From a virus, in IMG/VR virus record IMGVR_UViG_3300027835_000143, positions 1 through 64,000 of that record: 64,000 bases of DNA, one strand, 5' to 3'. This document shows, piece by piece, positions 42,139 to 64,000 of this stretch (its first letter is position 1; the number at the start of each line of letters is the position of its first letter). The position numbers were made by a program, and so were the translations under genes. The notes below the pieces were generated by a model, which saw only the letters and a program-made list of their open reading frames with translations, was not told the origin of the DNA and did no database searches.

Positions 42139-42407
42139 CCGCGCGCGGGTTCTGCGCGCCCGGCGAGGCCGAGGCAGCGAAGGGCGCCGTCCACGCGCTC
42201 GCGACTGCGCTCTGCGGTGTGATGGCGATCTACAACGGCGCCGCGTTCCTCTATAGGCGCGAGCGGCACCTGGCGTTCAACGCCGTCGCCTACGGCCTGG
42301 CGACGTGGTGGGAGGCCCAGCAGACCGCGCGGCACTGGCGCCGGACGGTACCTAGAACGGCGGAGCGATCTTTGAATGGCGGTCCTTGTCACCGCATGTC
42401 TTCGTAA
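42135..42407 (+). CDS. small membrane protein
   Basis: AGGAG RBS and GTG; two hydrophobic helices. Confidence 0.55.
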   Translation: MTARGFCAPGEAEAAKGAVHALATALCGVMAIYNGAAFLYRRERHLAFNAVAYGLATWWEAQQTARHWRRTVPRTAERSLNGGPCHRMSS

Positions 42408-42957
42408 GTCCTGCGCGAAGGCTCCCGGCATAGATAACCTTCTCGGTCCCGCAATCGCACAAGCATTTCCATTTCGATTGGCCAACATACCTGATTGTCA
42501 CGAGCGCGCCGAAGCGCGTTCCTATTTCAACCGGCGCAGTCGCAGAGATTTTTCCGCGGCTTAATCGCCGCACGCAATCAGAGCACGTCCCGGAGCCTGC
42601 TTGGAACGCGTCGCGCCGCTTAGACGAATCGCATTCAGGACATCGCTGAAGTAGATCATCAGGAATCCGTCGACCGCGCCGTCGCGACTGTTCCGGCCGC
42701 ATCGTATAGGGGAAGAGCATTGGCTGTTTGAGATAACCAACCGCTGCCGCTAACCATCTACTGCCCCACGCGTCAAGGGTCCCGAGTCGGCTATTGCACG
42801 TCCCGCACAAGGCTCCCCTAACGAAGCCTGTCGAATGGTCGTGATCTAGCACGGCCGCCTCGGCCGGACAAAGGGCGCAACTGCCGGAAGAATTGGACGC
42901 AGCTAAGCGCAAGGCGTCCATGTAAGCCGGATCGTCTATTTTTGTTAGCCTTTTCAT
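42352..42957 (-). CDS. endonuclease VII-like homing nuclease with Zn-ribbon and WKCLCDCG domain
   Basis: CALC..LDHDHSTGFVRGALCGTCNSRLG; CPEC..CSDC; GTRFGAL..WKCLCDCG..SLRAGLTKTCG. Confidence 0.85.
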   Translation of the reverse strand: MKRLTKIDDPAYMDALRLAASNSSGSCALCPAEAAVLDHDHSTGFVRGALCGTCNSRLGTLDAWGSRWLAAAVGYLKQPMLFPYTMRPEQSRRRGRRIPDDLLQRCPECDSSKRRDAFQAGSGTCSDCVRRLSRGKISATAPVEIGTRFGALVTIRYVGQSKWKCLCDCGTEKVIYAGSLRAGLTKTCGDKDRHSKIAPPF

Positions 42958-42969
42958 CTAAAATAAGTA

Positions 42970-42998
42970 TAGACACGTTTACCGGATATATGTATACT
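42970..42998 (+). promoter_or_regulatory. sigma70-type early promoter
   Basis: TAGACA-17 nt-TATACT in a markedly AT-rich patch. Confidence 0.75.
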
Positions 42999-43004
42999 TT
43001 CTTA

Positions 43005-43517
43005 CGTAAGACGCGACGCTCCTACCGGGAGCCATTGACAACTGAATGACCAGCAGCGCCGGATGACCCCGCCGAAACGGAGGGCCGGCCGACAGGAAGG
43101 CAGCGAGACGGCCGGTAACAGGTAGGCCGCCAGTCGCAGCCGCCAGAGACTCCCAACAACAACCGTAGAGCAGAGACCGCGGCCATGTCCGTATCGGTAA
43201 TGAACTTTTGCCGGATACGCGAAAACGGACCGCTGAGTACGCCGTCCGCGCCTTCACCAGGTTGACGTTTGAGACGGGAGTCCGCGCGATGGTGGATCGC
43301 GTAGATGTCGGTGCAGCGAGAACCGTCCGAGCCTACCCTTGCCGCGCGGCGGCTGGCGATTGTGGCGATGAGGACGCGGGCGCCGACATAGAGGGGGAAA
43401 CGGGTAAGGCCCGGCCTGAGCGCCGGGCGCGCCGCTTCACGGAGCGCCGCGCCGGACGCTCGAACCGAGAACGGAACTTCAACCGCGCGGTCAATGACCG
43501 CCATAGACGAGGCCGAC
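43005..43517 (+). ncRNA. candidate structured early leader/ncRNA
   Basis: No convincing ORF; multiple local and long-range complementary segments. Confidence 0.5.
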
Positions 43518-43640
43518 ATGATCACACTCCGCACCGTCCTGACCTACGGGTTCCTGCTGCTCGCGTCGCTCCACGGCGAGCACGTCCACTTGCACAGGCA
43601 TGCAGCGCACGCGGTTCGCGTCCACGCGAACGTCCACTAA
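43518..43640 (+). CDS. 40-aa His-rich peptide
   Basis: GAGG RBS; MITLRTVLTYGFLLLASLHGEHVHLHRHAAHAVRVHANVH. Confidence 0.5.
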   Translation: MITLRTVLTYGFLLLASLHGEHVHLHRHAAHAVRVHANVH

Positions 43641-43699
43641 CTAATAATCGTCAGCGAGTTTTTAACCGCGCGCTACGCGCGCCTTAGAGGAGAACGACG

Positions 43700-44137
43700 A
43701 TGGTAAAACTATCCACGAAGAATGCCGACGTACTCCGCGCTCGCCGCGCGGACGCAGAACAGGTCTTCGAGCTGACGATGGAAGAAGCGCGCGCATTACC
43801 CGGACTCTTCGGACGGTTCGTGCCTGCAGCCTTCGAGCACGTCGGCTTCTATACGTGCACGAAGCTCGCGAACGGCGATGACCGGACCGGCGTTAAGACG
43901 CTCTACGTGCTCAAGGGTATCGACGCGCCGCGCTGCCATTTTATGAACTGCAAGAAGACGGTGACGCATACCGTTCAACGGCTCTGGACGATTCGCGGTC
44001 GCGCGCCGTTCGCGCAGCAGCATTGCTGCGACGATCACATACCCGGCATCTTCGATCGCGAGAGCACGTTCATGCGTTCGCTCCGGCGCGCTGGCTACGC
44101 CGTGTCGCGCTACTATCGAGTCGAGAGGATCAAATGA
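43700..44137 (+). CDS. hypothetical early protein
   Basis: Strong RBS; C..C..CCDDH. Confidence 0.6.
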   Translation: MVKLSTKNADVLRARRADAEQVFELTMEEARALPGLFGRFVPAAFEHVGFYTCTKLANGDDRTGVKTLYVLKGIDAPRCHFMNCKKTVTHTVQRLWTIRGRAPFAQQHCCDDHIPGIFDRESTFMRSLRRAGYAVSRYYRVERIK

Positions 44138-46664: not shown

Positions 46665-46919
46665 ATGACAGGGAAGACTCCGCAGGAGCGCCTGCGCGAC
46701 GCCGCGACGGAGGTCGAGGCGGCGCTCAAGGGGCTCGACATACGGGAGCACGCCTGCGAGTGCTGCAAGACGCGGCGGTTCGACAACTTCGCCCACGCGA
46801 AGGCGTACGCCGCGCTGAAGGAGACGCCGGCGAAGCTGCGCGACGCGGCCTCGCGGCTCGACGAGAAGGACGTCCATACGCGCCGAGACGGCGCCATCGA
46901 TGAGAGGAGCCCATCATGA
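46665..46919 (+). CDS. hypothetical protein
   Basis: AGGAG RBS; CECC. Confidence 0.55.
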   Translation: MTGKTPQERLRDAATEVEAALKGLDIREHACECCKTRRFDNFAHAKAYAALKETPAKLRDAASRLDEKDVHTRRDGAIDERSPS

Positions 46920-47959
46920 CCGGAGCCTGTGCACGACCCACGGAACTCTACGCCCTCGTCCGCGCCGCGATCGCGGCGCGCCTGCCGGTGCTCGTCACCG
47001 GCGCGCCTGGGCTCGGCAAGTCGCAGATCGTCGAGGCGGCGGCGGCGGCGGAGGGCGCCGACATGATCCTCTCCCATCCGGCCGTCGCGGACCCGACGGA
47101 TGCGAAGGGGCTGCCGTGGCCATCGCCGGAGGGCGACTGCGCGACGTTCCTCCCGTTCGGCGAGCTGGCGCGGGCGCTCAAGGCGACGAAGCCGACGGTC
47201 TGGTTCCTGGACGACCTCGGCCAGGCGCCGCCGAGCGTGCAGGCCAGCTTCATGCAGCTCCTGCTCGCGCGGCGCGTCAACGGGCACGCGCTGCCGGACT
47301 GCGTGACGTTCGTCGCGGCGACGAACCGGCGGACGGACCGCGCGGGCGTCAGCGGGATCCTGGAGCCGGTGAAGAGCCGGTTCGCGTTCATCGTGGAGCT
47401 GACGGCGCACATCGACGACTGGTGCGCGTGGGCGTTCGGGCACGGCATCCCGCCGGAACTGATCGCGTTCCTGCGGTTCCGCACCGAGTTGCTCTGCGAC
47501 TTCAAGGCGAGTGCGGACCTGACGAACTCGCCGCTCCCGCGCACCTGGGCGCACGCGGCGCGGATCCTAGCGCTCGGCCTGCCGCGCGGGATCGAGCAGG
47601 CGGCGCTCTGCGGCGCCGTCGGCGAGGGGGCGGCGGTCGAGTTCTCGGCCTTCCGGCGGTTCTTCGCCGAGATGCCGAACATCGACGAGATCCTCCGCGA
47701 CCCGGACAGGGTGGCGGTCCCTGACCGGCCGGAGACGCTCTACGCCATCGTGACGGCGCTCGGCATGCGGGCGACGACGGCGAACTTCCCGAAGGTCGGG
47801 CGGTACGCGGAGCGGCTCGTCGCGGCGAAGCACGGCGAGTTCGCCGCGCTGCTGCTGCGCGACATCGTCGCGCGCGACGCCGGGGTCATGCAGTCGCCGA
47901 CGTTCGTCAAGCTGGCCGCCGGGCCGCTCGGCGAGCTGATCGATGGGAGCAAGGCGTAG
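46916..47959 (+). CDS. MoxR-like AAA+ ATPase
   Basis: GAPGLGKS, DAKGLP, FLDDLGQA, AATNR, SRF, PRTW. Confidence 0.9.
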   Translation: MTGACARPTELYALVRAAIAARLPVLVTGAPGLGKSQIVEAAAAAEGADMILSHPAVADPTDAKGLPWPSPEGDCATFLPFGELARALKATKPTVWFLDDLGQAPPSVQASFMQLLLARRVNGHALPDCVTFVAATNRRTDRAGVSGILEPVKSRFAFIVELTAHIDDWCAWAFGHGIPPELIAFLRFRTELLCDFKASADLTNSPLPRTWAHAARILALGLPRGIEQAALCGAVGEGAAVEFSAFRRFFAEMPNIDEILRDPDRVAVPDRPETLYAIVTALGMRATTANFPKVGRYAERLVAAKHGEFAALLLRDIVARDAGVMQSPTFVKLAAGPLGELIDGSKA

Positions 47960-49177: not shown

Positions 49178-50323
49178 ATGACCAGGAAGCAGGTGACCGC
49201 AGACGACATCGTTCGGCGCGCGCGGACGGCGCTCATCCTCGACCACCCGTTCTTCGGCGCGCTCGCGCTCCGGCTGACGCTCGTCGAGAGCACGGAGCGG
49301 CCGACCGCGTGGACGGACGGCAAGATCCTCGGCTACAACCCGGACTTCATCGCGACGCTCCCGTTCGCGGAGGTCGTCGGCGTGATGGCGCATGAGGTCA
49401 TGCACTGCGCCTGCGGCCACCCGTGGCGGCGCGACGGGCGCGAGCCGCAGAAGGCGAACGTCGCGATGGACTACGCCATCAACTGGGAGATCGAGCAGTG
49501 CGGCCTGAAGCTCCAGGCGGGCCGGCTGCGCGAGGCGGCGTACGACGGCAAGTCGTTCGAATGGATCTACAACCGCCTGCCGGACGCGCGGCAGCGGAAG
49601 GGCGGCGGAATGCCGGGCGGCGGAATGCCTGGTGCGGGCGGCGAGGACGTCGTCGACGCGGTGACCGGCGCTGCTGGCGCCGAGGGTGCGACGGAGGCAG
49701 ACTGGCAGCAAGCCGTCCAGCAGGCGGCGGCGGCGGCGAAGATGCGCGGCGACCTGCCGGCGTCGCTGGACCGGTTCGCGAAGGCGGCAGTGGAGCCGCG
49801 CATCGACTGGAAGTCGGTCCTCAGGCGGTTCGTCCAGCAGGCCGCCAAGAACGACTACAACTGGACGCGGCCGTCCGCGCGGTACCTCGCGCGCGGCCTC
49901 TACCTGCCGTCGCTGCGGAGCGAGGCGATGGGGCCGATCGCGGTCGCGGTCGACACGAGCGGCAGCATCGACCAGGTGACGCTCGACGCGTTCGCGGCGG
50001 AGATCAACGCCGTCGCGAGCGAGGCGCAGCCGGAGCGCGTCGTCGTCCTCTACTGCGACGCGCGGGTCCACCGGACGGACGTCTTCGAGCGGGACGAGCC
50101 GGTCGAGATGCATCCCTGCGGCGGCGGCGGGACGTCGCACAGGCCGGTGATGGACGCCGTGGACGCGATGCCGGAGCCGCCTGTCTGCCTGATCTGCCTG
50201 ACGGACCTGATGACGGAGCACCGGGCGCAGCCGCCGGAGATGCCGGTGCTGTGGGCGACGACGTCGATGGCGTGGGCCGACAGGGTGCCGTACGGCGAAG
50301 TCGTGAGCCTCGAACGCGTATGA
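49178..50323 (+). CDS. metallopeptidase-VWA protein (DUF2201-like)
   Basis: PFFGAL, TAWTDG, AHEVMH (HExxH), VDTSGS MIDAS, GGGGT. Confidence 0.9.
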   Translation: MTRKQVTADDIVRRARTALILDHPFFGALALRLTLVESTERPTAWTDGKILGYNPDFIATLPFAEVVGVMAHEVMHCACGHPWRRDGREPQKANVAMDYAINWEIEQCGLKLQAGRLREAAYDGKSFEWIYNRLPDARQRKGGGMPGGGMPGAGGEDVVDAVTGAAGAEGATEADWQQAVQQAAAAAKMRGDLPASLDRFAKAAVEPRIDWKSVLRRFVQQAAKNDYNWTRPSARYLARGLYLPSLRSEAMGPIAVAVDTSGSIDQVTLDAFAAEINAVASEAQPERVVVLYCDARVHRTDVFERDEPVEMHPCGGGGTSHRPVMDAVDAMPEPPVCLICLTDLMTEHRAQPPEMPVLWATTSMAWADRVPYGEVVSLERV

Positions 50324-56750: not shown

Positions 56751-58561
56751 GACTGAAGCGGGACGGAGGAGGACAAGTGAAACAGATCCAGACGATCCGG
56801 ACGCCAAGCGGTCCGCTCGCGCTCGTCAGGCAGACGGCGGAGAAACTCCTCGCGGAAGGCGTCATCAGCGGGACGATGGACGGCGATCTGCATGCGGCGG
56901 ACGCGGCGACGGTGAAGGCCGCGATCCTAGCGTCCGCGATCTGCGACTTCTGCAGCGCGCCTGGCGCGGTGCACTTCTTCGACGTGCCGGACTTCGGCAT
57001 TACGAAGAACGCTGATGCGACGAACTACTCCGCGTCGAAGTCGACCGGCGGCTGGATGGCCTGCGATGACTGCGACGCGCTGATCCGGGCCGACAAGCGG
57101 AAGCAGCTCCTTGATCGTGCCGTCTCGAACCACGCCTTCCCTAAGTTCTCGCGCCGGATGATCGAGGAGCTGTACGGGAAGTTCTGGCAGGGAATGGATG
57201 AGCGCGCCGCCGGTGCTGGCGCGGCGGCCGCGATCGCCGACTACGTCGAAGGGCAGCTCACTGAAGTCGCGCAGCAGCCGAGGACGGCCCGCGATGAACG
57301 GATCGCCGCGATCTGTCGCGCGACCGGGCTGTCGCCGCAGGAGATGATCACCGTCCTCGAACAGCGGGTCGCGCTCCTGGCGCGGCAGAGCGGTGAGATC
57401 AACCAGAAGATCGCGACGGTCGGACACGAGATCTACGCGAAGCTCGCGCGGTTCGGACGGCAGATCGATAAGTTGGACCTCGGCGCGACGATCGACAAGC
57501 TGCTGGCAGAGCCTCGGAAACCGCTCGCCGACATCGTCCCGCACTGGCAGCGCGCGCTGGACGCGAAGTTCGAGGCGGCGCGGACGATCAGGGCGATCGT
57601 CGCCGGTGCGCGGGCGCTCATCCAGACGGATGCGACCGACCTGAACGATCCGCGAGCACTTCGAGATCTCGTGACGCGGACATCGCACGTCCGCGAGATG
57701 CAGGCGCTCGGCTTCGCCGACGACGTCCGGGCGCTCATGGCGGCGCAGGCGTACTCGTTCAACAGCGAGACGGCGTCAGCGATCCGCGAGGCCGCGCGGA
57801 GCGTGCCGCACGACGCGCCGCTCTCGTCGATCGAGACGCCGAACGTCGGCGCCGGCTGGTTCTGGTTCGCTGAACCGCTCGAACTCGCCGGAGCGCCTAT
57901 GGTCTCAGACAAGACGGACGCGCTGCTCTGGACGTGGACCGGGAGCGGAACGGACGCGTCGATCCGGTTCTCTGCGTTCGTCGTCGCGCGGAAGGGCACC
58001 GCCGCGGACGACCTGCTTGGGAAGGTCCTGCCGTCGACGAAGTGGCACTGGCCGCTCAACATGACCTTCCACGACATGCTCGCCTATAGCAGAGAGTGCC
58101 ATCGCCGCGACTACGGCGAAGGCGGGAAGCTCCTGCGAGACGGCATGCGGATCGCCCCCGAGGAGGAGACGATGCGCGTCGTCGGCGAGCTGAGCCTGTT
58201 CTTCGTCATGGCCTGCCTCTGGTTCCGGCAGACGGTGCCGGTCCTGACGCGCGCGCCGGGGCAGGTCGAGCGGCACGCGCGGAAACGGATGATGCGGGAG
58301 CACAAGCTCGCGGAGCCGCCGACGGTGCAGGTCGTCGCGCTGCGGAAGTCGCTCCGCGTCCCGGCGGGGGCGGCGGAGGGCGACCGCGTCGCCGGCGCGC
58401 GGGAGTACCGCTGCCGGTGGATCGTCCGCGGTCATCCTCGCCTGCAGGCGTGCGGTCCGGGCCGCAAGGACCGCAAGCTGATCTGGGTCGAGGCGCACGT
58501 CGCGGGACCACCAGAACAGCCACTTAAGACACGCCAGCGCGTTTACGCTGTGGTGCGTTAA
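56747..58561 (+). CDS. large hypothetical protein with N-terminal Zn finger and C-terminal VRGH motif
   Basis: CDFCS..WMACDDC; RWIVRGH.R.Q.CGP..IWVEAH..GP. Confidence 0.7.
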   Translation: MRLKRDGGGQVKQIQTIRTPSGPLALVRQTAEKLLAEGVISGTMDGDLHAADAATVKAAILASAICDFCSAPGAVHFFDVPDFGITKNADATNYSASKSTGGWMACDDCDALIRADKRKQLLDRAVSNHAFPKFSRRMIEELYGKFWQGMDERAAGAGAAAAIADYVEGQLTEVAQQPRTARDERIAAICRATGLSPQEMITVLEQRVALLARQSGEINQKIATVGHEIYAKLARFGRQIDKLDLGATIDKLLAEPRKPLADIVPHWQRALDAKFEAARTIRAIVAGARALIQTDATDLNDPRALRDLVTRTSHVREMQALGFADDVRALMAAQAYSFNSETASAIREAARSVPHDAPLSSIETPNVGAGWFWFAEPLELAGAPMVSDKTDALLWTWTGSGTDASIRFSAFVVARKGTAADDLLGKVLPSTKWHWPLNMTFHDMLAYSRECHRRDYGEGGKLLRDGMRIAPEEETMRVVGELSLFFVMACLWFRQTVPVLTRAPGQVERHARKRMMREHKLAEPPTVQVVALRKSLRVPAGAAEGDRVAGAREYRCRWIVRGHPRLQACGPGRKDRKLIWVEAHVAGPPEQPLKTRQRVYAVVR

Positions 58562-58573
58562 AAAGGAGACGAG

Positions 58574-59269
58574 ATGTCGAGACGAGGGACAGCACCAAAA
58601 TGTCCGCGCTGTGCGCAGTTCTACAAGGGCGCGCTGGCGCAGCACGTCTGCGGCAAGCCGGGCACGCGGCCCGGATACCGCGTGCCGAGGGATACCGTAG
58701 AGAAACGCGCCGCAGCGAATCGCGGTCGCAAGCAGACGGCGCAGGCCCGCGCGAACATGTGCGTTGCCGCGCGCACTCGTGCTGCGAAAGGAGGCCATCC
58801 GTTTCAACGCCAAGACGTTCGCGCGCGCGGAGCTGCGTCACGCCGCGGGAAGCCGGTTCTCTCATTCTTGAGACCGGATTCAGTTCATAAAAGAACCGAG
58901 GCCATCGCGAAGACGGAACGGTCGCGCGCGTCGACGTCGATCGAGCTAACGGTCAGAGTTGCGCTGGCCGCTATGGGCGTGGCCTTTATCAGGAGCTATC
59001 CGGTCGCGCCGTTCATTGTCGACATGTTCGTGCCTGCGCTCGACCTTGCGATTGAATGCGACGGCGACTACTGGCATTCGCGTCCTGAAGCAGCTGCGCA
59101 CGACGCTCGCAAGACAGCTGCGCTCGTGGCTGCTGGTCTGACTGTTCTAAGGTTGACCGAAACGGAGATCCGAAACGGATCGTTCTACGAGAAACTCTGT
59201 GCCGCCGTAGGCCGCACGCCGAACTCTATCGACGGCGAGACGCCGAACGAGAAAGCGAAACGCCGATGA
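58574..59269 (+). CDS. DUF559/Vsr-like PD-(D/E)xK endonuclease with basic N-terminus
   Basis: TSIE, FIVD, LAIECDGDYWH, D..K..L..G..VLRL.E. Confidence 0.85.
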   Translation: MSRRGTAPKCPRCAQFYKGALAQHVCGKPGTRPGYRVPRDTVEKRAAANRGRKQTAQARANMCVAARTRAAKGGHPFQRQDVRARGAASRRGKPVLSFLRPDSVHKRTEAIAKTERSRASTSIELTVRVALAAMGVAFIRSYPVAPFIVDMFVPALDLAIECDGDYWHSRPEAAAHDARKTAALVAAGLTVLRLTETEIRNGSFYEKLCAAVGRTPNSIDGETPNEKAKRR

Positions 59270-59505
59270 GCTACAGGTTCGTCGCGCGTCTCTCGCCGGG
59301 CCTCGTGCGCCTCAGCGGCGGCGAGTTCGGGATGCAGCTCTGGTCGGTCGGCTGGGCGCGGAAGGACGCGCGCTGCATGCACCGGACGACCTGCGGCCTC
59401 GCGCTGCCGAAGGGTACGCGGACGTACCGGCCGATCACGAACGGAAACAACCGCATGCACCGCATCGGCGAGGCGTGCATGGCGCTCATGGAGGAGATCG
59501 GATGA
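59266..59505 (+). CDS. hypothetical protein
   Basis: Coupled ORF. Confidence 0.5.
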   Translation: MSYRFVARLSPGLVRLSGGEFGMQLWSVGWARKDARCMHRTTCGLALPKGTRTYRPITNGNNRMHRIGEACMALMEEIG

Positions 59506-59987
59506 CCATCAAGACGCGGGAGCGGAAGGCGAAGAGGCAGGCGAAGGGACTGCGGCCGCGTGACGGTGTCGTGCCGTACCCGTTCGGTGAGCGGTCCGAT
59601 ATCGAGGACATCGAGGCCGGCGAGCAGCGGGAGGAGGTACCTGGCGGCCTGAGGAAGGAGCAGGCTGTCGCGCTTGGGCGCAAGCTCCGCGACCGCATGG
59701 ACGGCCACGGCTGGCGGCTACACGTCTGGCAGAACCTCGGCTGGCGCTACACCGTGCATCGCGGCCCGCTCTCGGTCTACCCGGTCTATGGATGTCGTGG
59801 CGGCGTAACGTACTTATGCCGGCTCGCCGCCGCGCCTGAGGATACGAGCGGCTCCGGCGCCATCTTCTGGCCGGACCAGTCGCGCAGGCGCAACCCGAAC
59901 GCCGCAGTCGCCTCGCAGCTCGTCGTGGCGCGGGCGTTCGTCGAGAGGTGTGTGCTCGCTATCGAAGCGGCCAGTAGTCAGCTATGA
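59502..59987 (+). CDS. hypothetical protein
   Basis: GW..HVWQNLGWRY. Confidence 0.55.
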   Translation: MTIKTRERKAKRQAKGLRPRDGVVPYPFGERSDIEDIEAGEQREEVPGGLRKEQAVALGRKLRDRMDGHGWRLHVWQNLGWRYTVHRGPLSVYPVYGCRGGVTYLCRLAAAPEDTSGSGAIFWPDQSRRRNPNAAVASQLVVARAFVERCVLAIEAASSQL

Positions 59988-61234
59988 CGGCCTACACGCT
60001 CCGCCCCTATCAGCAGGCGGCCGTCGACGCCTCGCTCGCCTACCTGCAGGACCGGAAGCTCGCCGGTCGGAACGGCATCGTCGTCCAGCCGACCGGCGGC
60101 GGGAAGTCGCTCGTCATCGCCGCGCTCTGCGACCGGCTCGACGCCCCGGCGCTCGTCTTCCAGCCGTCGCGGGAGATCCTGGAGCAGAACGCGGAGAAGC
60201 TCGCTCACTACGGCTACCGCGCCGCCGTCTTCTCCGCCAGCCTCGGGCGCCGGGAGGTCGGGCGCATCACGCTCGCGACGGTCGGCAGCGTGATGCGCTA
60301 CCCGGAGGTCTTCCGCGACGTGAGGTACGTGCTCGTCGACGAGTGCCACGCGGTGAACGCGCGCGGCGGGATGTACGACGAGTTCCTCGCCGGCCTCGCC
60401 GGCGTCCGTGTCCTCGGCCTGACGGCGACGCCGTTCCGGCTGGCGTCGAACAGCTTCGGGAGCGAGCTGCGGTTCCTGACGCGGACGCGTCCGCGCGTCT
60501 TCCGCGACGTCGTCCACGTGACGCAGGTCCAGGACCTCGTACGCGCCGGCTGGTGGGCGCCGCTCCGCTACCTGACGGACCGGACGGTCGTCGACCGGTC
60601 GCGCCTGAAGCTGAACTCCAAGGGTAGCGACTACACGGACGAGAGCGTCCAGGGTCACCTGCTGGAGGTCGGCTTCGTCGGCGAGCTGCAGGCGGCGGTC
60701 GAGCGGCAGCTCGACGAGGGCCGGCGGAACGTCCTCGTCTTCACGCGGTTCGTGAACGAGAGCGAGCGGCTCGCGAAGGCCGTACCCGGGACGGCCGTCG
60801 TGACGGCGGAGACGCCACCGCAGGAGCGCGCGCAGATCCTCTCGGACTACCGGCGCGGGAAGATCCGCGTCGTCTCGAACGTGGGAATCATCGCACTCGG
60901 CTTCGACTTTCCGGAGCTGGAGTGCGTCGTGCTCGGACGCCCGTCGATCTCGCTCGCGCTGTACTATCAGCAGGTCGGCCGCGGCGTGCGGCCGCATCCG
61001 GCGAAGGCGTACACGCAGGTCGTCGACCTCGTCGGGCTGACGCACCTGTTCGGCAAGGCCGAGGACCTCACGCTGCGGAAGGTCGGCGCCGGATCCGACC
61101 AGTGGGTAATGGCGAGCGGCGCGCGGCATCTGACGAACATCTATTTCTCGGACCGCGACAGCGTCAACCCGAAGATCGCGGCGAAGGCGATCGCGACGCG
61201 GCGGTACTGGGCGAAGCGAAGGAGGCGGGCATGA
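59984..61234 (+). CDS. SF2 DExH-box helicase (YejH/RadD-like)
   Basis: LRPYQ, PTGGGKS, VDECH, GLTATP, GFDFP, YQQVGRG.R. Confidence 0.93.
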   Translation: MTAYTLRPYQQAAVDASLAYLQDRKLAGRNGIVVQPTGGGKSLVIAALCDRLDAPALVFQPSREILEQNAEKLAHYGYRAAVFSASLGRREVGRITLATVGSVMRYPEVFRDVRYVLVDECHAVNARGGMYDEFLAGLAGVRVLGLTATPFRLASNSFGSELRFLTRTRPRVFRDVVHVTQVQDLVRAGWWAPLRYLTDRTVVDRSRLKLNSKGSDYTDESVQGHLLEVGFVGELQAAVERQLDEGRRNVLVFTRFVNESERLAKAVPGTAVVTAETPPQERAQILSDYRRGKIRVVSNVGIIALGFDFPELECVVLGRPSISLALYYQQVGRGVRPHPAKAYTQVVDLVGLTHLFGKAEDLTLRKVGAGSDQWVMASGARHLTNIYFSDRDSVNPKIAAKAIATRRYWAKRRRRA

Positions 61235-61848
61235 AGAGACAGCAAGAAGTACTCGGTAGCGGGAAGATCGACCGCGGCCGGGCCTGTGAGCACGAACACA
61301 TCATGCCGCGCGCGGTGCTCGTCCTGCGGCTCGGGATCGCCAGGATGCGCGCGCCGGCCGCGCAGAACATGAATGACGCGGACTTCGCCAGGGCGATCGC
61401 GGCGCTGCGGCGCGGCGCGGCCTACACCATACAGCCGGCGTTCAGCGGGCGGTGGGAAGAAGTGATCGTGAACTGCGGTGGCCGCGCCGCGGTCAGCCTG
61501 AGGCTGCCGCTGTCGAGGCCGGAGCTCGACCAAATCATCATCGGCGTGCCGAACTATATCTGGTCCGTCTTCCACGTCCGCATGTCGCGGTACGGGTTCC
61601 GGTGCCGCTGCTGCAGACGGTTCATGCGGAGCCGGACTCGAGCCGCCTGGCTCCCGGCAGAGGCGACGGCCGGGATGACGCTCGCGGAGGTGCTCGCACT
61701 AGACGGCGGCGATAGGGACTCGCTGGCCAGCCGCGCGCGGTGGTGCCTGCCGTGCGCCGCCGACCTGGCCGGATTGGCCGAAGCGGCGGCCGTCGCTGCG
61801 CGCTTCTCGCCCAGGCGCTTGACCGTTGACGTAGCGGCGCCGGATTAG
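61231..61848 (+). CDS. hypothetical protein with C-terminal Cys motifs
   Basis: ATGA coupling; CRCC..CLPC. Confidence 0.5.
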   Translation: MKRQQEVLGSGKIDRGRACEHEHIMPRAVLVLRLGIARMRAPAAQNMNDADFARAIAALRRGAAYTIQPAFSGRWEEVIVNCGGRAAVSLRLPLSRPELDQIIIGVPNYIWSVFHVRMSRYGFRCRCCRRFMRSRTRAAWLPAEATAGMTLAEVLALDGGDRDSLASRARWCLPCAADLAGLAEAAAVAARFSPRRLTVDVAAPD

Positions 61849-61854
61849 TAGCGT
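61826..61854 (+). promoter_or_regulatory. sigma70-type promoter
   Basis: TTGACG-17 nt-TAGCGT. Confidence 0.55.
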
Positions 61855-61860
61855 CTGAAT

Positions 61861-62550
61861 ACGTAACCTGATTGGCAGACTATACACGCGCGGCCGGGAT
61901 AGGTTATTCTTGCCGGTGAAGCTGCGGGTTGGGTTTGGCCGCCCTGACCGTAGACGACGGGTTCACCCGACGGTGTTTCGTTGATCGCACCGAAGGGAAT
62001 CCGCAGCAGACTTTCGTCGCAGGATCGACGTCATGAGATTGTTCCTACAGACAATTCACGCCGTGAACCTCCAGCGCACCGTAGGTCTGCACATCCGCAG
62101 CTCCTGTTCTCCCGCTCCGAACGCGGCGGGCTCTAAGTAGGCGTTCCGTCGAGATTCCGCTCTCGGACGCGCGCGGGAACCACGTAGCGCGTGCGCCGGC
62201 CAAGTGGCGACCGACCGGGCGATGACGCCCTGGCGGTCACGCGCCGTTCCGGCTCCGGCTGGGACGGCCGCGGCACTATGGGACAGGGCTCCAGCCCAAC
62301 GCCACGAGGTAGAGTGCGGCGCGCGGCGCCGTCGTCGGGTCACCTGCTGGAGGCGCGCCGGTTTGTCGGCGCGGAAAAAGCTGACGCTGCTCGGCATGGG
62401 CAGGCGGGGACTACCCGTCGTCTGCTCGGCCGACGCTGACGCGTCGTCCGGTCACGGTACGCTCTTACGGTTCGTTTCGGACTAGCTGGTTACAAGTACT
62501 TCGAGTACAACCTCTCGGATCAAGTACGTGGACGGGCCGTACTAAGTACG
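61861..62550 (+). ncRNA. candidate large structured ncRNA or origin-associated RNA
   Basis: ~700 nt without a credible ORF; long-range helices, G-U pairs, cUCCGg tetraloop. Confidence 0.55.
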
Positions 62551-62563
62551 TAGGAGGAAGGCG

Positions 62564-62872
62564 ATGCAGCACGTGATGGAGGTCCTCGACGCGAGCGGGC
62601 ACGTCGAGCTGACGTGGACGCCAGGGGACGCTGAGAGCGAGGCGACGGCGCGCGCGGAGTTCGATCGGCTGAAGGCCGCCGGGTTCGCGTTCTTCTCGAC
62701 GCCTGGAGATGACGCGGAGGAGGTCATGGGCTGGCCGACGCGCGGTCGGCCGCCAGCGTGGACGAAGGCAGGGACGCTTGACGTGCGCACCGAGCCGATC
62801 GCGGAGCAGACGACGGAGTTCCGCCCTTATGCGAGCCGGACGGTCGCCGTCCGGCCGATGCGGGGAGGCTAG
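62564..62872 (+). CDS. hypothetical protein
   Basis: AGGAGG RBS; ends in PMRGG. Confidence 0.65.
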   Translation: MQHVMEVLDASGHVELTWTPGDAESEATARAEFDRLKAAGFAFFSTPGDDAEEVMGWPTRGRPPAWTKAGTLDVRTEPIAEQTTEFRPYASRTVAVRPMRGG

Positions 62873-62874
62873 CG

Positions 62875-63069
62875 ATGGCGAGGAAGGACGCGAAGCGGAA
62901 CGTGCGCGCGGTCACGACGCTCCCGTGGGGCATGTCGGCGCTCGTCGACAGCCTCGTCGGGACGCTCTACGGGCAGACGCGCGCGGAGGTCCTGCGGTTC
63001 ATGATCGTAAGTTGGGCGCACGACAACGCGCAGGCCGCGATCCGGCGCGAGACCGGGCAGGTGCGCTGA
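62875..63069 (+). CDS. ribbon-helix-helix DNA-binding protein
   Basis: VRAVTTLP..LVDSLV..YGQTRAEVLRFMI. Confidence 0.65.
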   Translation: MARKDAKRNVRAVTTLPWGMSALVDSLVGTLYGQTRAEVLRFMIVSWAHDNAQAAIRRETGQVR

Positions 63070-63662
63070 TGCCGGACGCCTCGACGCAGCCGCCGGCCTA
63101 CGGCGACGGTGGCTCCACGGCACGGACGCCGGCATGGGAGGAGACGGCTGACCTCGCCGGACGCCTCGCGCGCTCCGAGGTCGCGGCTGATACCTGCGTC
63201 GAATGGTGCGACTGGACGCCGGCTGCGCGCCGGGAGTGCATCGCGCTCGCGTGCTACGAGATCGGACGGCAACGGGACCGGCGGCCGCAGCGGATGGCGC
63301 GGCGCCTATTTAGGTCGTGGCTGACGCAACGCCAGCGCGACGAGCACCGGCGGCGCGGCTCTGTCGTCGTCCGCGGGTCCGCCGGCGGCACCTACCGCGT
63401 CCAGCCGGAGTCTGTCAGGACGACCGTCCGCGTCGAGCGGCACGGATCGCGGTGGTACGCACGCGGCGCCTGGTACTGCCTGCACCCGGAGGACGTGGAC
63501 CTCCCGCCAGCCGACCTCGCGCTCGCGCACCTGCTCCTGCTGACAACCGATGAGCCGGCGTTCCTCGCGGCGGCGAACGCGCACGCGGCCGGCGACCAGA
63601 TGTGGGACCGCGACTACCTGCGGCGCCTGCGTGAGGCACGCGACCGCGAGGCGGCAGCGTGA
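63069..63662 (+). CDS. hypothetical protein
   Basis: A..LF.SWLT..QR; VRGSAGGTYR; YCLHP..LPPAD..LA..L.L.TDE..FLAAAN. Confidence 0.6.
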   Translation: MPDASTQPPAYGDGGSTARTPAWEETADLAGRLARSEVAADTCVEWCDWTPAARRECIALACYEIGRQRDRRPQRMARRLFRSWLTQRQRDEHRRRGSVVVRGSAGGTYRVQPESVRTTVRVERHGSRWYARGAWYCLHPEDVDLPPADLALAHLLLLTTDEPAFLAAANAHAAGDQMWDRDYLRRLREARDREAAA

Positions 63663-64000
63663 GCGTCCCGGACCTCTCGGCGATCAAGGCGCGGCTCCTG
63701 CCGAGACTCGACGACCCGTACTTCACGCGCGCGAACGAGCACGTCGGGAGGGGCTGCGATCACGTGAACGCCGGCATGACGCTCGACCACAAGTCGCGGA
63801 CGGTCGCCTGCGCGTGCGGGACCGTCCTCGACCCGTTCGACGCCCTCGTGCTCTACGCGCGGAGCGAGGATCGCCTCGTCTCGACGCTGGGCGAGATGCG
63901 GAAGCGGGACGCGCGGCTGGCCGAAGAGAAGCAGCGCGAGAAGGCCCGGCGCCCGTTCGCGCGCGCGGTCGTCGGCCGAGCGGCGATTAAGGACGAGACG
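63659..64000 (+). CDS. hypothetical protein, truncated by the window end
   Basis: GTG overlap; CDH..RTVACACGTVLDPFDAL. Confidence 0.55.
   Translation, partial: MSVPDLSAIKARLLPRLDDPYFTRANEHVGRGCDHVNAGMTLDHKSRTVACACGTVLDPFDALVLYARSEDRLVSTLGEMRKRDARLAEEKQREKARRPFARAVVGRAAIKDET

Follow-up and report, generated by a model that had tools for sequence, protein, structure and literature searches.

A gene-free stretch with a candidate GTAC operator at an operon boundary of a very isolated phage

What does a stretch of 715 nt without genes (61849-62563, described here on the + strand) do between two strings of coupled phage genes? The window analysed covers the first 64 kb of an IMG/VR virus record that has 95,717 bases and an estimated completeness of 94%. 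The genome has a GC content of about 69%, nearly all its genes lie on the + strand and many of them are translationally coupled; the gap is of intermediate composition (64% GC vs 69% in the genome), with local falls to 57-61%. A preliminary description of this region had proposed a novel structured RNA with extensive long-range pairing, an attenuator or a replication primer. The string of genes upstream of the gap includes a DUF559/Vsr-like endonuclease gene, an SF2 helicase gene (59984-61234; Pfam ResIII and Helicase_C, PHROG 16) and, as its last member, a 205-aa orphan gene (61231-61848, + strand, GC3 of 0.87), whose product has itself as the sole match among 5.8 billion proteins, has no Pfam, PHROG or NCBIfam match, and gave a single-sequence AF2 model of pLDDT 36, which is unusable. 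The downstream string starts at 62564 after a strong GGAGG, and consists of small unknown genes followed by genes encoding an SbcD-like phosphoesterase and an SbcC/Rad50-like ATPase. Both flanking gene sets are tightly coupled and entirely on the + strand, indicating that the gap is an operon boundary. It sits in the replication/recombination part of the phage, and the SbcD-like (Metallophos) and SbcC/Rad50-like (AAA_23/SMC_N) pair, located at genome positions 68136-72419 in the same string as the genes after the gap, indicates that the operon behind it leads into recombination functions.

The gap is non-coding, as had been claimed for the approximately 700-nt region. The real genes of this genome have GC3 values of 0.83-0.97, and no reading frame between 61850 and 62540 rises above approximately 0.8 over more than 100 nt; a genome-wide codon-periodicity scan gave the same picture, with 61800-62490 as one of the stretches lacking periodicity. 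The longest open reading frames of the gap, of 113 aa on the - strand and of 93 aa on the + strand, mirror each other as "shadow" frames and have Arg/Ala/Pro-rich translations, and none of the frames combines a ribosome-binding site with a coding signal. No Pfam match was found in the gap, and none of 10 candidate frames was present letter for letter in a public gene-call collection of 15 billion proteins, in which the flanking genes are present. A hidden gene is ruled out by these three results (no Pfam match, no frame led by a ribosome-binding site with coding signal, no public gene call). No protein remnant was recognisable when the gap was compared by tblastx with the syntenic genes of relatives. 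Two further candidates were discarded: the template repeat of a diversity-generating retroelement or another dispersed repeat, since the gap sequence is unique in the genome; and the dispersed GTTAA..TTAAC palindrome of this phage, which is not present in the gap.

The preliminary description had recognised no tRNA, tmRNA, RNase P or intron signature and had called for a scan against Rfam. That scan agrees with it: nowhere in the genome did an Rfam 15 covariance model reach its gathering score, 58000-64000 has no match even at E<=1, and relaxing the threshold to E<=10 in 61800-62600 added just two rows, both on the - strand and at chance level (14 bits vs a gathering score of 36, and 12 vs 70). 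The families covered include RNase P, tmRNA, 6S RNA and riboswitches. ARAGORN reported no tRNA or tmRNA gene either, in the window or elsewhere in the genome. Related DNA was equally absent from the collections compared: blastn of the gap returned nothing from the phage collection and one 44-nt chance match from the plasmid collection, and the gap was unmatched by blastn and nhmmer at 80 loci around relatives of the helicase gene, the closest of which are 48% and 40% identical and belong to phages of 47% and 32% GC. Relatives of the 205-aa gene yielded one locus, a doubtful one. Seven loci were recovered for relatives of the first downstream gene (102 aa) from viral, metagenome and genome collections; at all seven, coding genes directly precede the homolog, with no gap, and nhmmer and tblastx of the gap against these loci detected no similarity, the tblastx synteny beginning only at 62561. 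A single related phage is known, a Logan contig of 93,717 nt; it encodes P0116, which is 79% identical to the product of the second downstream gene (64 aa), a gene without relatives in IMG/VR. The phage lineage is very isolated.

The complementary segments pointed out in the preliminary description are all present, as confirmed by reading of the sequence and by a repeat search: TGACCG (61945-50) is complementary to CGGTCA (62449-54); TAGACGACGGGT (61951-62) forms 11 Watson-Crick pairs and one terminal G-U pair with ACCCGTCGTCTG (62413-24); CCTCCAGC (62068-75) is complementary to GCTGGAGG (62346-53), and ACCCGACG (61965-72) to CGTCGGGT (62333-40); and two partners are available to GCTGCGGGT, namely the ATCCGCAGC copies at 61999 and 62093. 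The gap also contains a two-copy composite repeat, CGCACCG..ATCCGCAGC, with the copies about 90 nt apart. The claim that this pairing is extensive did not survive comparison with chance, stem length and stem count both being at shuffle level. The longest perfect stem in the stretch has 11 nt, and a perfect stem at least that long turned up in 19 of 150 dinucleotide-shuffled versions of these 690 nt; seven perfect stems of at least 8 nt were observed, compared with 5.5±2.5 in the shuffles, 34 of 100 of which reach seven. The ensemble also disfavours the helices in question: the 12-bp helix 61951-62/62413-24 has a pair probability of 0.04, the helix 62068-75/62346-53 and the helix 61965/62330 that crosses it (the proposed pseudoknot) have 0.00 each, and the 6-bp helix 61945-50/62449-54 reaches 0.97 with the exact ends of the preliminary description and no more than 0.03 with three other choices of ends. 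With its helices at chance level and disfavoured in the ensemble, the defined long-range architecture proposed for the region is not supported. Hand-picked long-range complementarity in DNA of 65-70% GC needs a shuffle check before it is read as RNA architecture.

Among the helices listed, only the hairpin with the UCCG loop is robust. This 11-bp stem (62243-53/62258-68, + strand), with two G-U pairs and a cUCCGg loop, was confirmed with a mean pair probability of 0.95 in each of five sequence contexts, and the 32-nt fold that includes it (62240-62271) has an energy of -23.9 kcal/mol (z=-3.7). The best-defined local fold consists of three hairpins on a closing stem (62199-62311, + strand, 113 nt; MFE of -68.3 kcal/mol, z=-4.5 vs 200 shuffles, MFE frequency of 0.19). 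Its RNALfold SVM z is -3.65, in a genome with 81 elements at z<=-3.5. A tRNA identity of this three-hairpin element was rejected by ARAGORN.

Folding of the region as a whole exceeds that of shuffled controls only marginally. The + strand has a minimum free energy at z=-2.3, with two of 150 dinucleotide shuffles folding as well, and the - strand one at z=-1.6; six coding control windows of the same length range from +0.26 to -1.99, so that one coding control comes near the + strand value of the region (-2.0 vs -2.3). When energy was regressed on GC over 83 genome windows, the + strand of the region had a residual of -20 kcal/mol (z=-1.8), a value undercut by two of the 83. The asymmetry in favour of the + strand is accounted for by the positive GC skew of the whole genome. 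The density of locally stable structures in the gap is that of the genome background: three RNALfold elements at z<=-2.5, compared with a genome mean of 2.6 per 715 nt, 53% of windows having at least three. With a z of -2.3 for the region and of -4.5 for the one 113-nt element, some RNA structure with a function may exist here.

The 5' end of the gap is marked by a promoter-like site, TTGACG-17-TAGCGT (61827-61855, + strand; TTGACG at 61827-32, TAGCGT at 61850-55), located at the end of the upstream gene. Its -10 hexamer, TAGCGT, fits only the TANNNT pattern, and a consensus promoter scan of both strands of 61000-63200 reported no promoter. The motif TACGTAA follows 5 nt downstream of the hexamer (61860-61866, + strand) and is possibly a start-site or operator element. 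It has three copies on the + strand of the 95.7-kb genome, another of which (43003-43009) lies 4 nt after the -10 hexamer TATACT (42994-99) of an early promoter; this early promoter (42971-42999) is the best promoter-like site of the phage and is followed by a long gene-free stretch. The geometry common to both sites gives modest, after-the-fact support to a promoter and to transcription of the leader behind it. The start proposed in the preliminary description thus stands as a sequence and gains indirect support from TACGTAA, and is not reported by the consensus scan; given this indirect support, the attenuator option of that description overlaps with the reading as a transcribed leader. No intrinsic terminator was found on the + strand. 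The other leader (42970-43700) resembles the gap in its promoter-like site with TACGTAA, in being free of genes over 500-700 nt and in preceding an operon; it differs from the gap in folding at z=-0.6 and in having no GTAC array of the kind described below. A sequence common to both leaders was looked for, and no significant similarity was found.

The 3' end of the gap carries an array of five GTAC half-sites (62494-62551): AAGTACTT, GAGTACA, AAGTACGT and CGTACTAAGTACG, the last a palindrome of 13 bp. The half-sites are direct and inverted; their five GTAC cores take up no more than 55 nt (62496-62549), and only 3 nt separate the last core from the Shine-Dalgarno sequence GGAGG (62553-57, + strand). 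Five GTAC in 55 nt were found in none of 2000 shuffles of the gap and in none of 200 shuffles of the whole genome; the tetramer has a frequency of 2.9 per kb in the genome, the array is the only such cluster in 95.7 kb, and three of the 15 genomic copies of AAGTAC lie within 56 nt at the array. The array is thus unique in the genome and statistically significant, and is a candidate operator. Its folding as RNA does not exceed that of shuffles (z +0.2 to +0.7), and an RNA-level role was rejected on this ground; the lack of excess folding makes a DNA-level role as a protein-binding array the better reading. An exact-pattern scan of IMG/VR for the array gave 0 matches, and there is no GTAC array upstream of the homolog of the 102-aa gene in the seven relatives.

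Upstream of the array, and about 100 nt from the start codon, lies CGCTCTTA (62460-62467), an 8-mer that the + strand of the genome contains only once; it equals lambda boxA (PMC2724277), a match that was spotted after the fact and is weak evidence. A boxB-type hairpin is absent 8-9 nt past it, the nearest one (62496-62508; 5 bp with a 3-nt loop) being located 28 nt downstream. Since there is no boxB-like hairpin at the right distance, the boxA match is treated as a curiosity.

The second gene of the downstream operon (62875-63069, + strand) encodes the 64-aa protein, which is a candidate ribbon-helix-helix protein. Its AF2 model (pLDDT 69) shows an extended N-terminus followed by two helices, and in a structural search independent of Foldseek about 20 of the 50 listed matches were ribbon-helix-helix antitoxins or repressors, with Z of only 3-4 (TacA, MazE, ParD, DinJ, RelB, PrpA, CopA, NikR and operator-bound PutA). 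Foldseek of the model against the PDB returned nothing at E<=0.001, and the sequence-level searches gave no match. The model is thus weakly ribbon-helix-helix-like, and the protein would be a candidate binder of the GTAC array. At L083, the only relative locus checked in this respect, the next gene (a homolog of 63066-63662) directly follows the homolog of the 102-aa gene, indicating that the 64-aa gene is absent there.

The explanation that we favour, holding it about as probable as all others together, is that the gap is an untranslated leader or inter-operon spacer with an autoregulatory operator, and not a stand-alone structured RNA. The functional parts of the stretch are most likely its two ends: the weak promoter with TACGTAA, and the GTAC array abutting the ribosome-binding site, which is probably bound by the operon's own small repressor. 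Host RNA polymerase would start at the weak TTGACG-17-TAGCGT at the end of the upstream gene, transcribe some 700 nt with ordinary GC-rich hairpins and then enter the operon starting at 62564. Control would be exerted at the 3' end, where the five GTAC half-sites, direct and inverted, extend up to the Shine-Dalgarno sequence and would serve, at the DNA level, as binding sites for a small repressor dimer. The ribbon-helix-helix-like 64-aa product of the second gene is the best candidate for this role, which would make the circuit autoregulatory. What we infer here is that the promoter is active, that the 64-aa protein has the ribbon-helix-helix fold and that it binds the array. Several observations weaken parts of this explanation. 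The leader is called into doubt by the poor -10 hexamer and the consensus scan of 61000-63200 without a promoter, and also because approximately 700 nt is long for a leader and the first 600 nt are left without an explanation; the operator, because the spacing of the half-sites is irregular (3, 9 and 1 nt), unlike that of a single fixed dimer site; and the repressor, because the ribbon-helix-helix assignment rests on Z of 3-4 without a sequence or Foldseek match.

Alternatively, the gap might be a functionless spacer made of decayed lost genes or acquired DNA, of which only the last 70 nt or so (operator and ribosome-binding site) would be active; we consider this rather unlikely. It would fit the flat GC3 profile, the intermediate GC (64% vs 69%), the junk-like translations of the reading frames and an adjoining 205-aa gene that is itself an orphan, as well as the arrangement in all relatives, where coding genes directly precede the homolog of the downstream gene without a gap, and the free-standing endonuclease genes nearby (58574-59269, 42352-42957), which point to a history of insertions. 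However, the tblastx comparison with the syntenic genes of the relatives left no protein remnant, TACGTAA beside the promoter-like site suggests a functional 5' end, and phages seldom keep 700 nt of useless DNA. The main idea of the preliminary description, a new large structured RNA of about 700 nt on the + strand with a functional three-dimensional architecture, is improbable in our judgement. A gene-free stretch in a tightly packed phage, a promoter-like site at its 5' end, the + strand z of -2.3 vs -1.6 on the - strand, the well-defined MFE of the 113-nt three-hairpin element (z=-4.5), the UNCG-type hairpin, which includes G-U pairs, and the unusual occurrence, twice in the same phage, of a gene-free stretch behind a promoter all speak for such an RNA; but the long-range helices of that description either have probabilities of 0-0.04 or change with the choice of ends, stems are no longer or more numerous than in shuffles, local structure is as dense as in the mostly coding genome, one coding control window lies at z=-2.0, the + strand bias follows the genome-wide positive GC skew, and neither an Rfam family (at E<=10, apart from the two chance-level rows) nor a homolog in the collections searched was found. 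The claim of a novel large structured RNA is not supported: its helices are at chance level, local structure is at background level and there is no Rfam family. A more specific form of it, in which an RNA of about 700 nt without Rfam relatives is made from its own promoter, has 62199-62311 as its core and acts in replication or host takeover, has only a slim chance of being right; if the reading as a non-coding RNA were true, the two units of promoter and TACGTAA, each with a gene-free transcript of 500-700 nt, would be a deliberate design of this phage lineage.

A replication origin, or the template of a primer RNA like ColE1 RNA II, beside the helicase gene is highly improbable. The position in the replication/recombination module, between the helicase gene (59984-61234) and the SbcD/SbcC-like genes downstream, speaks for it, as do the local GC dip to 57-61% and the two copies of CGCACCG..ATCCGCAGC about 90 nt apart. 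However, repeated 8- and 9-mers are at or below the level of shuffles and fewer than in most genome windows, the cumulative GC skew is monotonic and does not turn at 62 kb, neither an antisense promoter nor an RNA I-like element was detected, and no initiator gene is recognisable, the 205-aa neighbour being without a family. The suggestion of a ColE1-RNAII-like primer near the helicase was not borne out, since an antisense promoter, an excess of repeats and a skew switch are all missing. The gap resembles ColE1 RNA II as a potential transcript of several hundred nt near replication genes, a likeness of length and neighbourhood only; it lacks an antisense RNA I promoter, the features of an origin and any homology. 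Similarly, it shares with the large RNAs GOLLD, ROOL, OLE and HEARO and with group I/II introns the size range of 600-800 nt and the phage context, and is unlike them in lacking a covariance-model match, neighbouring tRNAs and conserved relatives.

The closer likenesses are those of the favoured leader with an operator. Like the lambda PL/PR leaders with their nut sites, the gap is a gene-free and putatively transcribed stretch that follows a putative host-type promoter and leads up to the first gene of an operon, and both contain the exact boxA 8-mer CGCTCTTA; the lambda leaders are far shorter than this gap, which also differs from a lambda nut site in having no boxB-type hairpin at a spacing of 8-9 nt. 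Ribbon-helix-helix proteins (among them Arc, Mnt, CopG and the omega repressor) typically bind several short sub-sites at their own promoter, and the omega operator is made of 7-bp repeats in direct and inverted orientation. The GTAC array is like the operators of these four in having several short sub-sites of mixed orientation at, or overlapping, the start of the regulated operon, and the operon is like those systems in containing a small candidate repressor gene. The GTAC core and the irregular spacing match, to our knowledge, no described operator. On this reading the locus is of a common type, a leader between operons that carries an operator, here in this very isolated lineage. Its GTAC array and the 64-aa gene make up a compact candidate repressor-operator pair that lends itself to testing.

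The operon under this candidate control opens with the 102-aa gene (62564-62872, + strand), the first of the downstream coupled string. Its product belongs to an unnamed and unstudied family of small, mostly viral proteins (113 representative clusters) with the conserved C-terminus ...RTVAVRPMRGG, has no Pfam, PHROG or NCBIfam match, and in an atlas search matched only viral clusters of "hypothetical protein". The ubiquitin tail reads ...LVLRLRGG; the C-terminal RGG of the 102-aa product resembles it, and the product may be a phage ubiquitin-like protein.

Other features of the genome were noted in passing. Two free-standing endonuclease genes with weak codon signal, one encoding an endonuclease VII homolog (42352-42957, the only clear gene on the - strand) and the other a DUF559/Vsr/MTES_1575-type endonuclease (58574-59269), are probably selfish insertions. 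The early region contains a gene for a DUF2201 protein (49178-50323), with metallopeptidase-like N-terminal and VWA-like domains, and upstream of it, with other genes in between, a gene for an AAA_5 (MoxR-like) ATPase (46916-47959). Several long perfect hairpins, with no tRNA or Rfam match, lie at 79333-80788, in and around a C5-methyltransferase region; their local folding z values (-9.2, -7.5, -6.1 and -6.0) are by far the lowest of the genome.
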